Shown: positions 4,024 to 8,871 of the stretch, in pieces
Position numbering within the stretch: position 1 is the first letter of the stretch
Layout: every line of letters begins with the position of its first letter
Assembly: GCA_048937405.1 (NCBI GenBank)
Contig: JBHLNF010000006.1
Coordinates: 128,001-192,000 of the forward strand
DNA: 64,000 nt
Direction: 5' to 3'
Source of the DNA: Promethearchaeota archaeon
GTDB taxonomy: Archaea > Asgardarchaeota > Lokiarchaeia > Sigyniarchaeales > SOKP01
Made by a program: the position numbers and the translations under genes
Notes under the pieces: generated by a model
Databases searched by the model: none
Told to the model about the DNA's origin: nothing
The model's input: the letters and a program-made list of their open reading frames with translations, nothing else

Positions 4024-5148
4024 ATGACTGAATCAGAATTTCAAAAAGTAATAAGAAGTAATATACCCACTTTTGAGGATCTTGAAAATGAAATAATTCA
4101 AACTAAAAAATGTTGTGCATGTGGAGCATGTATAGCATATTGTGAAAGTCAAGGTTTTGATGTTATCGAAATGATTGATAATACGCCTAGGTTTAAATCT
4201 ATAAAGAGTATTGATAATTGCAATAAATGTGGTATTTGCTATTATATATGTCCTCAAACTAAAACATTAATAAAGGAACTAAATAATACTTATTATATTC
4301 ACGATAATACAGGACTTATTAGAAAAATCCTAGCTGCTAAAAGTACAAACTCAGCATTAAAAGAAGTTAAACAAAATGGAGGGATAGTTACAGCAATTCT
4401 TTCTTATCTTTTTAAAAAACATAAAATTGATGCAGCTATTGTTTCGGAATTTAATGATAATCTTGAACCTGTTCCAAAAATTATATTTGATAAAGAAGAC
4501 TTATTTAAATCAGCAGGTACACGATATTCTATTTCTCCTCAAATATTTCCATTAAAAAATATTAATAAATTACCCCAGGAGATTCTTAAAAAAAAGGAGA
4601 TATTTAATATTGACCAGCTTAGATTAGCATTTATAGGGACACCCTGCCAATGTAGAGCTATAAGTAAAATGAAATTCTTATATGTTAAACCAGCTCACGT
4701 AATTAAATATATTATAGGCCTGTTTTGTTTTGAAAATTTTAATTATTCTCAGTTGTATGATATTATAAAACGAGAAACTAATGTTGATCCAACCAATATC
4801 AAAAAAACTTGGATAAAAAAGAATTTTTTTCTCCAAACCAAAGACAATCAACAATATGAAATTAACATAAAAACTCTAAATCCTGCTGTTAGAAGTAATT
4901 GCTTTAAGTGTGATGAATTCACAGGGAGATTTACAGATATCAGCGTTGGGGCATCTGGTGCTCCAGAAGGATATTCTATGATATTAATTCGGAGTGAACG
5001 TGGTGAAAAAGTAATAAATAGCATGCTTTCAAAAGATATAATCAAACAATTTATTATTCCATATGACAAGACTCTTCAGTGGAAGAACAAAAAATTAGAG
5101 TGGTTTAATAAATTAATTTTCTTAAAAATTAAAAATTCTAAAATTTAA
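4024..5148 (+). CDS. FrhB/FdhB/FpoF-family F420-binding subunit with N-terminal ferredoxin
   Basis: CCACGAC and CNKCGIC..CP, GGIVT, GTPCQ, GLFC, DISVG. Confidence 0.88.
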   Translation: MTESEFQKVIRSNIPTFEDLENEIIQTKKCCACGACIAYCESQGFDVIEMIDNTPRFKSIKSIDNCNKCGICYYICPQTKTLIKELNNTYYIHDNTGLIRKILAAKSTNSALKEVKQNGGIVTAILSYLFKKHKIDAAIVSEFNDNLEPVPKIIFDKEDLFKSAGTRYSISPQIFPLKNINKLPQEILKKKEIFNIDQLRLAFIGTPCQCRAISKMKFLYVKPAHVIKYIIGLFCFENFNYSQLYDIIKRETNVDPTNIKKTWIKKNFFLQTKDNQQYEINIKTLNPAVRSNCFKCDEFTGRFTDISVGASGAPEGYSMILIRSERGEKVINSMLSKDIIKQFIIPYDKTLQWKNKKLEWFNKLIFLKIKNSKI

Positions 5149-5212
5149 TCAAGATATATTTATCAAATTAATATATTTTGGATTAATGAAAAAATTTATT
5201 ACATATTTTTTT

Positions 5213-5283
5213 TCTGAAAACCCATGCGAGGGGTTAGTCTCCTCTCAACTATCATTTTTCTGAGAAGTTCATTCTATTTCAGA
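5213..5283 (-). promoter_or_regulatory. SECIS-like element in the 3' UTR of Sec-containing hdrA
   Basis: Minus strand: UAG-A-AUGAA-CUUCUCA-GAAAAAUGAUAGU-UGAGAGG-AGA-CUA, i.e. AUGA/GA core, 7-8 bp helix, A-rich loop, just after the stop; outer helix UCUGAAA/UUUCAGA. Confidence 0.72.
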
Positions 5284-7320
5284 TTATATCTGGTAAGGAG
5301 CTAATGATTCAATCTTTTTCCAAATAAGCTCAATAGAATCAATATATTCTTCTTTATACTCGAGCTCAGTATTACAAATTCCTTTTATTTCTTCGATAAT
5401 TTGTCTATCTCGATAATATTTAAGATCAATTGCTCGAGCTGGACATGATGATATACAAACTCCACACCCTTTGCATTTTAATTCATCTACTTCCGCAATA
5501 TTCTTTCCATTGACTTTTATAGCCTTATAATTACATAACTTTTCACATCTACCGCATCCAACACAGAGATCCTCGTCAATTTCAGCAATTATTAATTCTT
5601 GAGTTATTGTATCTTTAGAGAGTAAAGTTGATGCTTTGCTTGCAGCAGCTAAAGCAGTTGATACTGAATAAGGGATGTTTTTAGGTCCAACAGCACAACC
5701 ACATATATAGATTCCTAGGTTTTTAGTTTCTTGGGGTTTTAAACAACCATGAAATTCAGTTAAAAATCCATTTATATCTTTAGCCACATTTAAAGTTTCA
5801 ATTAATTTGGCTGATGATTTAGAAGGAACCATTCCTGTAGATAATACTATTAAATCAGCTTCCATATTAATGAAATCATTTGTTAAAGTGGAAGAAGCAG
5901 TAACTTTTATTTTCTTAGTGTTTTGATCCTCTCTAATATCTCCTACTTTTCCTCGAATCATTATTATACCCGCTTCTCTCGCTCTTCTATAATATTCTTC
6001 ATTCCCTTTATCCCATGTTCGTATATCTATATAAAAAATAACTATTTCTATATCGGGATATTCACTTTTTAATAATTGAGCATTTTTAAGAGCAACATTA
6101 CAACATACTCCTGAACAGTAGTTATTTCCCTTTAAAGATCTTGAACCTACACATTGAATCATAACAACAGTTTTAGGGATTTTTCCATCAGAAATTCTAT
6201 AAACATGACCTCCTGTTGGTCCAACAGGACTTAATATGCGTTCTAATTCTATTTGAGTAATAACATCAGGATAAATACCATATTGATATTCATTAGTTTC
6301 TATAATTGGATATTCATCCCATCCTGTAGCAATAATTACCGCACCGACCTTTACATCTATATATTCTGTCTCTTGTTCTAAACTAATGGCTCCAGCAGGG
6401 CAAATTCTCTGACAATTTTTACATTCTATGCATGCTTGTTTATCAATTAAGGCAATTTTAGGGACAGCTTGAGGAAAAGGAATGTAAATTGCACCTCGCT
6501 CACCAATACCCCTATCAAACTCACTAGGTACTTTTACTGGGCATTTAGTTGTACATAAACCACATCCAGTACATTTGCTTTCATCAACATATCGAGGATT
6601 TTTCTTTATTTTAACATTATAATCCCCAGGGATGCCATTAAATTCAACAATATCACTATACGTATATAAGTTGATGTTAGGATGTTTTGATGTATTAACC
6701 ATAATAGGGGCTAAAACTCATATAGCACAATCGTCTGTAGGATAAATTCGATCCAATTGTGCCATTTTTCCGCCAATTGTGGCTTCTTTTTCAACTAAAT
6801 GCACATTAATTCCCTGATTTGCTACATCCAACGCAGCATTCATTCCTGCAATACCCGCACCTATTACTAATACTGCCTTTTCTACTGGAATTCTTTTATA
6901 AGGTATAATCTCTAATTCTCTGGCACGATTTATCCCTGCTTGTATTAGTCTAATAGCTTTTTCAGTAGTATTTCGTTTATTTCCTGATTGAGTAAATGAA
7001 CATTGTTCACGGAGATTAACCATTTGCAAGAAATATGGGTTTAATCCTGCTTCAATTAATACATTTCGGTATGTGGATTCATGAATTTTTGGTGAACAAG
7101 CTGCAACAACAACACGATTCAAGTCTAAATCTAAAATGTCATTTTTAATAATATTTTGTCCTGGATCGCTACAAGTAAAATCATTTACTTTAGCAACAAT
7201 TACATTTGGAATTGCTTCAACATAGTCTCTAATAAGATCACAATCAATGCTATTGCTTATATTAACTCCTCATCTACAAATATATACTCCGATTCTTACT
7301 ATGGTCTGTAATTCAGACAT
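5284..7320 (-). CDS. hdrA: Selenocysteine-containing HdrA, 678 aa, U17 and U201 (joins the 6718..7122 and 5284..6702 ORFs)
   Basis: Single frame from ATG 7320; TGA at 7270-7272 (YICR-U-GVNI, cf. VCHCGINI) and 6718-6720 (DDCAI-U-VLAP, cf. DCSLCILAP) both align to conserved Cys of the paralogues in this window; downstream SECIS-like hairpin. Confidence 0.9.
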
Positions 7321-7752: not shown

Positions 7753-8871
7753 ATGAGTATAAAGAGTTTTAATGATTTAATTGAAGAGGTCCATAAACCT
7801 GGGATTTGCCAAGAATGTGGAGGATGTGTTAGTTTTTGTAATGCATTAGAATATGATGTGATTGGGTTTGTTAAATCTAATTCCCCTCCAGAATATATAA
7901 ACAAGGATAAGTGCCTCGGGTGTGGAATATGTTATATTATTTGTCCACAAACTCACGTTTTAGATGACGATCTCAATAACGAATATAAATTTTCAGATTA
8001 TATTAAAATGCCATTAGGATATGTCAATTCGCTTTACTCATGCCAAGCTACAGATAGTGAATTTTTGAAACATGGAACAGATGGCGGAGTTGTAAATTCA
8101 ATTATTAATTATTTAATTGAAAAAAAAATAATTGATGGAGCAATTGTGGCAAAAACAAAATTGCCTTTCTCAAGAGAAGCTACTATAGTTGAAAATAAAG
8201 AAGAATTAATTGAGGCTTCAGGTATAAAATTAGACATATCTCCACAATTAGATAGTGTTCAGAAATTTCATACATATACAAATTCTTTACCTAAATTAAA
8301 AACTCAAAAAGTTAGGAAATTAGCATTAGTAGGGACGCCATGTCAGATTTACACTATTAGATGTATGCAAAGTTTAGGTATTATTCCCTCTGAAAATATA
8401 GAAATTTGTTTAGGATTGTTTTGCTACGAGAATTTTTTCTTTGATAAGAGAAAGGTTGAGAAATTTGAGAAAGATTTTAATATAAAATTCAAAGATATTG
8501 AAAAAATAAACATTAAAGAAGATTTAATTGTTAATTTAAAGAATAATAAAATTATTCATATACCATTTAACAAACTAAAGGATTATATGCGTAAAGCTTG
8601 CTCTGTATGTAAAGATTTCACTAATATTTATGCCGATATTTCTTTTGGAGGATTAGGATCCCCCAAGAAATTTACAACTGTAATCACTCGTACTAAAAAG
8701 GGAGAAAATATTTTTAATAAAGTTTTAAATTCAGGGATTATCAAAAGTTTAAAATTAGATATAAATTCCAAAAATGAAATAAAGGAAAAAATTACCCAAT
8801 TTTCTCTCTCAAAATTAAAACGAACAGAACAAAGTTTGAATCATAAATTATCAACGCAAGACCATAATTAA
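7753..8871 (+). CDS. FrhB/FdhB/FpoF-family F420-binding subunit with N-terminal ferredoxin
   Basis: CQECGGC, CLGCGIC..CP, DGGVV, GTPCQ, GLFC, DISFG; paralogue of 4024..5148. Confidence 0.88.
   Translation: MSIKSFNDLIEEVHKPGICQECGGCVSFCNALEYDVIGFVKSNSPPEYINKDKCLGCGICYIICPQTHVLDDDLNNEYKFSDYIKMPLGYVNSLYSCQATDSEFLKHGTDGGVVNSIINYLIEKKIIDGAIVAKTKLPFSREATIVENKEELIEASGIKLDISPQLDSVQKFHTYTNSLPKLKTQKVRKLALVGTPCQIYTIRCMQSLGIIPSENIEICLGLFCYENFFFDKRKVEKFEKDFNIKFKDIEKINIKEDLIVNLKNNKIIHIPFNKLKDYMRKACSVCKDFTNIYADISFGGLGSPKKFTTVITRTKKGENIFNKVLNSGIIKSLKLDINSKNEIKEKITQFSLSKLKRTEQSLNHKLSTQDHN

Follow-up and report, generated by a model that had tools for sequence, protein, structure and literature searches.

A Loki-type SECIS element flanked by a covarying hairpin and closing helix behind a stand-alone hdrA gene with two in-frame UGA codons in a Promethearchaeota archaeon

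We analyzed a window of 64,000 nucleotides from a Promethearchaeota archaeon (GenBank assembly GCA_048937405.1, contig JBHLNF010000006.1, positions 128,001 to 192,000), with the focus on an hdrA gene and the sequence immediately behind it. The gene is encoded on the minus strand, and the only interruptions of its frame are TGA triplets at codons 17 and 201 (Table 1). The translated product matched the solved HdrA structure 5ODC (chain A, 5ODC_A) over its full length (E = 4e-205) and contains Fer4 and FAD/NAD Rossmann domains. Standard ORF calling cuts the gene into two pieces of 134 and 472 amino acids. A convergent frhB-like gene is located downstream (4024–5148, plus strand) and a divergent frhB-like gene upstream (7753–8871), and no vhuD or mvhD gene is present directly behind hdrA at the locus. 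Thus, based on the gene order on both sides, we conclude that hdrA is monocistronic.

Both TGA codons of hdrA fall in alignment columns that are otherwise dominated by cysteine. The column of U17 contained Cys in 14 paralogues from the same genome and TGA in three others, and the column of U201 contained Cys in 14 paralogues and TGA in four others. Both codons were also retained in 14 of 14 orthologues from the same genus, which showed 76–86% amino acid identity over the full length of the protein. The region around position 200 of HdrA is the canonical selenocysteine (Sec) site according to the text of PMC4989117.

Table 1. Coordinates of the hdrA gene and of the features of the RNA element that follows it, in window positions; ranges written from high to low follow the minus strand.
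Feature	Positions	Strand	Details
hdrA coding sequence, stand-alone	5284..7320	minus	678 aa; translation with TGA = U; ATG at 7320, TAA at 5286-5284
In-frame UGA, codon 17 (U17)	7270..7272	minus	context CR-U-GVNI; 2.0 kb upstream of the SECIS
In-frame UGA, codon 201 (U201)	6718..6720	minus	context DDCAI-U-VLAP; 1.45 kb upstream of the SECIS
P1 closing helix, 5' strand UCUGAA	5278..5283	minus	begins at the first base after the stop; pairs with 5213-5218
Canonical stem of the putative kink-turn (2 bp), 5' half AG	5274..5275	minus	pairs with C5237 and U5236
Putative kink-turn bulge and first GA, A-AUGA	5269..5273	minus	AUGA at 5272-5269, present in 64/64 elements
SECIS upper stem and loop	5240..5268	minus	9/9 stem pairs covary
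5' stem arm ACUUCUCAG	5268-5260	minus	read from the sequence
Apical loop AAAAAUGAUAG	5259-5249	minus	11 nt; read from the sequence
3' stem arm UUGAGAGGA	5248-5240	minus	read from the sequence
Second GA of the tandem G.A/A.G core, and CU	5236..5239	minus	GA at 5239-5238; CU at 5237-5236 is the 3' half of the canonical stem
P3 side hairpin	5219..5235	minus	AACCC (5235-5231), loop CUCGCAU, GGGUU (5223-5219)
P1 closing helix, 3' strand UUCAGA	5213..5218	minus	covariation
T6 run, possible archaeal transcription stop	5189..5194	minus	19 nt after the fold; genome 29% G+C

The element behind hdrA lies on the same strand as the gene and consists of an AUGA motif 11 nt after the TAA codon, followed by 29 nt and then by GA. 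The intervening 29 nt contain a stem of nine positions, comprising an A.A opposition, seven Watson-Crick or G.U pairs and a closing G.U pair, and an apical loop that begins with AAAAA and ends with AG. The third to fifth adenines and the final G of this loop are invariant, and an A precedes the final G in 57 of the 64 aligned elements described below. The sequence-only reading of this DNA had pointed out the SECIS core, a CUUCUCA/UGAGAGG helix, an AAAAA loop and the 11-nt spacing from the stop codon, and all of these were confirmed.

The features of the element agree with those of the lokiSECIS, for which the text of PMC4989117 gives AUGA as the defining motif, followed by a stem of 9 bp, a loop of 11 nt that opens with five adenines and ends in a G after an A, and then GA. 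The element is a Loki-type, eukaryote-like SECIS and an instance of the lokiSECIS published in 2016 (Mariotti et al., PMC4989117), which is the same as the type I eSECIS-like element of Asgard archaea (Huang et al. 2024, PMC11227280); as described in the texts of the two papers, it shares with the element at the locus the AUGA, the stem, the loop and the GA. The eukaryote-like character attributed to the element at first sight, based on AUGA, the A-rich loop and GA, fits this published type. In the same texts, the lokiSECIS is likewise located immediately 3' of a selenoprotein gene, with one element for several distant UGA codons of HdrA. No SECIS family of Rfam was found over the whole window at the gathering score, nor over positions 5100–5400 at E ≤ 10, where only weak sRNA and snoRNA noise appeared. 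This result agrees with the failure of eukaryotic SECIS tools on the lokiSECIS, which is reported in the texts of both PMC4989117 and PMC11227280.

The order of parts that defines a kink-turn can be read along the element: the 2-bp stem AG/CU, a 3-nt bulge A-A-U, the pairs G5270.A5238 and A5269.G5239, and the long stem. The 2-bp stem covaries among the paralogous SECIS elements, where AG/CU, UG/CA, AA/UU and CU/GG occur, and its G-C pair is invariant in the 64 elements, in which the consensus after the upper stem is (G/A)A-C-U with an invariant C. The second GA is replaced by AA in 11 of the 14 orthologues, and the G.A/A.G core therefore alternates with G.A/A.A within one orthologue group. A replacement of GA by AA is a variant reported in the text of PMC11227280.

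The core is embedded in a larger fold, as had been proposed, and the three helices of this fold are conserved in the 15 orthologues and in the 64 elements. The AACCC..GGGUU hairpin and the UCUGAAA/UUUCAGA closing helix, both of which had been noticed from the sequence, are present and are here called P3 and P1, respectively. P3 starts 0–2 nt beyond the 2-bp stem and is followed directly by the 3' strand of P1, to which A5277 is able to add a seventh pair (UCUGAAA, 5283-5277). The fourth base of the P3 loop, G5227, is kept in 63 of the 64 elements and is followed by a pyrimidine and then usually by a purine. In RNAfold, the three-helix fold is the minimum-energy structure at -16.2 kcal/mol, with a z-score of -1.8 against shuffled sequences, which is weak when taken alone, and P3 of the locus copy is marginally stable with a pair probability of about 0.4. 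That the fold goes beyond chance is evident from comparison, namely from the covariation among orthologues and paralogues and from the same arms in 10 of 10 SECIS elements of the genome.

The orthologue set comprised the locus and 14 genomes of the same genus, giving 15 rows in an ungapped alignment of 91 columns. The element is located 11 nt after the stop in all 14 orthologues. The three-helix structure pairs 96.3% of the cells in this alignment, as compared to 31–65% when the partner strand is slid, and RNAalifold recovered the same three helices unguided. Compensatory changes were observed in three of the six P1 pairs (U-A to C-G, G-C to A-U, and U-A to A-U).

A scan of public genomes yielded 74 further loci, mostly titled as Promethearchaeota or Promethearchaeia MAGs, in which the core model identified 65 elements, 35 of them distinct behind stand-alone hdrA and 27 behind hdrA-vhuD. 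Alignment to a junction model of 91 positions gave 64 distinct rows, both stand-alone and post-vhuD. In these, 95.2% of the cells pair, as compared to 35–57% in the slid controls, and double changes occur in 20 of the 22 pairs, including six of six in P1 and four of five in P3; these figures lean towards the structure because each row was aligned by fitting it to the model and the rows share ancestry, and the kinship means that the counts overstate the number of independent events. Covariation was observed for all helices of the fold. The many G.U pairs assign the RNA to the minus strand. For 33 stand-alone elements, the mean pair probability was 0.86 for P1, 0.87 for the SECIS stem and 0.81 for P3.

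Two of the orthologues, in genomes G002 and G012 (L019:1412-1502 and L022:1412-1502, both minus strand), contain a stand-alone hdrA without the TAA stop. Their frames run for five more codons and end at the UGA within the AUGA of the SECIS, so that the 5' strand of P1 becomes coding. Among the public loci, hdrA genes with 77–95% identity and the same SECIS were found on contigs titled Odinarchaeota, Thorarchaeota, Hermodarchaeota, Bathyarchaeota or Nanopelagicaceae bacterium (L069, L090, L136 and others), and it looks as though these titles are unreliable or the contigs mis-binned.

The distribution of such elements within the genome was determined with a 40-nt core model, which matched 10 places in 4.47 Mb at E ≤ 1e-4. 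All ten SECIS elements carry a hairpin of 4–5 bp right after the core and a closing helix of 4–9 bp, a combination that appeared in 7–23% of the trials with shuffled flanks. For nine of the matches, the ORFs upstream were vhuD, a VhuU-like gene or small ORFs containing UGA, with poor ORF calling for two or three of them. Thus both comparable elements in the genome and covariation of the pairs, on which the sequence-only reading depended, were found: ten Loki-type SECIS elements and double changes in nearly all pairs. The suggestion that the outer helix regulates the SECIS of this particular gene did not hold, as the same helix was present at each of the ten. Judging from these sequences, the outer helix is a constitutive arm in every SECIS of the genome and not a regulator special to hdrA.

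We also considered five relatives of this genome, with 20 further elements. A strict junction rule, which accepts contiguous stems only, was passed by 13 of the 20 elements, as compared to 16% of shuffled sequences; the rule misses the other seven, which have a P3 of 2–3 bp or a longer linker to P1. In most of the elements that failed the rule the arms were present, with P3 shorter or the linker longer. The same plan is seen in five elements linked to hdrA in other families of the order, according to RNAfold predictions and reading of the sequences. The core model R1 gave no matches at E ≤ 0.001 in 16 genomes of these other families, and with the filters turned off it gave weak matches only (11–23 bits), at the expected places behind hdrA-vhuD. 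The generality of the plan beyond the genus thus rests on five loci read by eye.

Several loci deviate from the common arrangement or add to the repertoire of genes in front of such elements. In one genome from another family (L031:3444-3585, plus strand), a SECIS-like hairpin holds the TAA of hdrA in its apical loop and has the core GAUGC...CGAGA in place of AUGA...GA; RNAfold predicts a closing helix and a 3' hairpin around it. Four Loki-type SECIS matches were located within about 6 kb at G007:C17:9536-15118 (L056, L057, L061 and L062), which suggests a cluster of small selenoprotein genes; in one of them, L062, AGGA replaces AUGA and the side hairpin is weak, and this element may be decaying. 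A strong Loki-type SECIS at L044:98-137 is preceded by a hydrophobic ORF of 81 amino acids with an in-frame UGA (G000:C19:94854-95099, context GG-U-GC). Other ORFs in front of Loki-type SECIS elements encode 83 amino acids (CQP-U, before L039) and 60 amino acids (with a UU pair, before L038).

The arrangement of the gene itself differs from the published one. According to the texts of PMC4989117 and PMC11227280, hdrA and vhuD/frhD are always neighbours and share the SECIS behind vhuD/frhD, whereas the hdrA of this locus has no such neighbour and a SECIS of its own, as is also the case in at least 35 distinct public sequences. The closest paralogue in the genome shows 75% identity and is followed by vhuD and then by a SECIS at C28:548892. 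This SECIS reads UCCGAAAUAGA-AUGA...AACCC...GGGUU-UUCGGA, and its P1, core spacing and P3 are nearly as at the locus; UCCGAAAUAGA of the paralogue differs by one base from UCUGAAAUAGA of the locus element. The bases ahead of AUGA in the paralogue belong to the final codons and the stop of vhuD, and the 11 nt between TAA and AUGA at the locus match them. As the agreement with the element of this hdrA-vhuD paralogue extends into the end of the vhuD sequence, the stand-alone locus is probably an hdrA-vhuD-SECIS cassette from which vhuD was deleted.

The genome encodes part of the machinery for Sec. SepSecS was identified with 474 bits, above its cut-off, and an EFsec-like factor with 232 bits, below the cut-off of bacterial selB. 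No tRNA-Sec was found in the assembly with either RF01852 or ARAGORN, and the two best matches to RF01852 were tRNA-Gly and tRNA-Arg. The assembly of 4.47 Mb has a listed completeness of 100%; ARAGORN detected only 14 tRNA genes in it, and it seems that most tRNA genes are absent or escape detection. Since only 14 tRNAs were detected, the missing tRNA-Sec is probably due to a limit of the assembly or of the detection.

The SECIS at the locus most likely serves both UGA codons of hdrA, as had been suggested at the outset, because no other such element lies near this gene, whose two UGA codons are each aligned with Cys in 14 paralogues; on this evidence, both codons would be recoded. This agrees with a published proposal, in which one lokiSECIS is able to serve up to six UGA codons over about 2 kb.

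Taken together, we consider it highly probable that the element is a canonical Loki-type SECIS built as a three-way junction in the 3' UTR of a monocistronic hdrA gene with two Sec codons, derived from a vhuD-deleted cassette, in which P1 and P3 would serve as scaffold or recognition elements and not as a switch. The first arm would be the SECIS proper, with the canonical stem, the bulge, the tandem G.A/A.G pairs, the stem and the A-rich loop, a kink-turn at the level of sequence. The second arm, P3, probably stacks on the 2-bp stem and would thereby supply the regular helix that a kink-turn needs, and the third arm, P1, of 6–7 bp, would close the junction. The SECIS would recruit a Sec-specific elongation factor with Sec-tRNA, directly or via another factor, to ribosomes at the two UGA codons far upstream. 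As P1 starts at the first base past the stop codon, a terminating ribosome must melt it; the junction would be intact while ribosomes stand at the distant UGA codons. Both P1 and P3 would act constitutively in this process.

Three other explanations were weighed against this one. In the first, P3 and P1 are unrelated to Sec decoding and form a 3'-end module beside the SECIS, acting in transcription termination or in protection against 3' exonucleases. The fold closes the transcription unit and faces the convergent frhB gene, which is suggestive of such a role, as are the G+C-rich stem of P3 followed by U4 and the T6 run 19 nt after the fold, whereas no U run comes after P3 at the other SECIS elements of the genome. 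Moreover, archaeal transcription terminates at oligo-T tracts and not at hairpins. The 3' strand of P1, located beyond P3, covaries with the 5' strand and is therefore transcribed, and the arms join the kink-turn stem by linkers of 0–2 nt in 10 of 10 elements, which argues for one folded unit. Roles in protection and in recognition are, in addition, mutually compatible. We therefore regard a separate 3'-end module as improbable, and P3 as a terminator was rejected as the main explanation, as a U run after P3 is not common to the other elements.

The second alternative is a two-state fold, proposed in the sequence-only reading, in which the 5' UCUGA gives up its partner strand in the closing helix and instead binds UCAGA, within the 5' arm of the SECIS stem, thereby turning the SECIS off. 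The complementarity itself is real in the locus copy (5283-5279 with 5263-5259), but it is confined to that copy: the central C-G pair is present in one of the 15 orthologues, in which the arm otherwise reads UCAAA or UUAAA. Over the orthologues, the alternative helix pairs 68% of the cells, which is not above shuffled sequences, and shows no double changes. When constrained to this helix the fold reaches -10.7 kcal/mol, as compared to -16.2 kcal/mol for the native structure, a penalty of 5.5 kcal/mol, and the pair probability is 0.001. Among the 33 stand-alone elements, the recurrent pairs outside the model only extend P1 or P3 or fall within the apical loop. As judged from these alignments and predicted folds, conserved two-state behaviour is absent, and a switch at this locus is very improbable; of the proposal, the complementarity stood and the switch did not.

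Least credible of all is that the two UGA codons are true stops in a broken or split gene and the hairpin a chance match, as standard ORF calling and the undetected tRNA-Sec might indicate, since all 14 orthologues, highly identical along the whole protein, keep both Cys-aligned TGA codons, the genome contains SepSecS and an EFsec-like factor, and the element fits a core model that matches just 10 places in 4.47 Mb at E ≤ 1e-4; the nine matches with an examined upstream ORF lie behind members of published selenoprotein families or behind ORFs with UGA (ORF calling was poor at two or three).

The reading of the element as a canonical SECIS with two additional arms was compared with known systems. 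Eukaryotic SECIS elements of form 1 (RF00031 and related) share with it the AUGA...GA kink-turn-like core, the unpaired apical adenines, the location in the 3' UTR and the action at a distance, and their helix I corresponds in position to the basal helix P1. The element described here has a shorter upper stem, and P3 is found where the 3' side of the internal loop would be expected. The VhuD SECIS of Methanococcales and Methanopyrus, as described in the text of PMC4989117, retains two features of classical archaeal SECIS elements, the GAA_A bulge and a G+C-rich upper stem, both of which are absent here. Likewise, with the features of classical euryarchaeal SECIS elements as defined in the text of PMC11227280, the CUUCUCA/UGAGAGG stem shows neither three consecutive S-S pairs nor a GAA/A bulge.

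The similarity to kink-turns and k-junctions (Wang et al. 2014, PMC4005666) is one of sequence only and lies in the stem, the bulge, the tandem G.A/A.G and the non-canonical stem. The putative kink-turn is placed at a three-way junction, which would allow another helix to stack on its short canonical stem, loosely as in the k-junctions of PMC4005666. In the k-junction of the TPP riboswitch (PMC4005666) the third helix is part of the turn, whereas here the 2-bp canonical stem lies between the turn and the branch point.

The SECIS itself is of an already known kind, and the finding mostly confirms known biology, with the idea of a switch refuted. The main texts of PMC4989117 and PMC11227280, figures aside, make no mention of a side hairpin or a three-way junction and limit themselves to the core, the stem and the loop, or to an internal loop with a generic lower stem. 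The supplementary protein alignments and trees of Huang et al. 2024 (PMC11227280) contain no SECIS structures, and a search of the literature on SECIS elements with a three-way junction gave nothing relevant. The stand-alone hdrA genes of this orthologue group run counter to the published rule that hdrA and vhuD always have one SECIS in common.

Asgard archaea are the closest known relatives of eukaryotes, and the way in which they recognise their eukaryote-like SECIS matters, as no SBP2 homologue has been found in them; the text of Mariotti et al. (PMC4989117) reports that SBP2 was not found in Lokiarchaeota. A covarying third arm and closing helix, together with a loop G that is kept in nearly all elements, offer a larger and more specific target. 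It is conceivable, although we are inclined to doubt it, that P3 and P1 are obligatory in the Sec signal of Asgard archaea as a docking platform for a factor that replaces SBP2, that the ancestral SECIS of eukaryote type was a three-way junction with a kink-turn, and that the eukaryotic helix I and internal loop arose by loss of the third arm. The three-armed target may be of use in binding studies, in RNA models for new selenoprotein genes and in tracing the origin of the eukaryotic SECIS. For such work, the locus provides a clean natural case, in which one SECIS behind a single gene would act on UGA codons 1.45 and 2.0 kb away.
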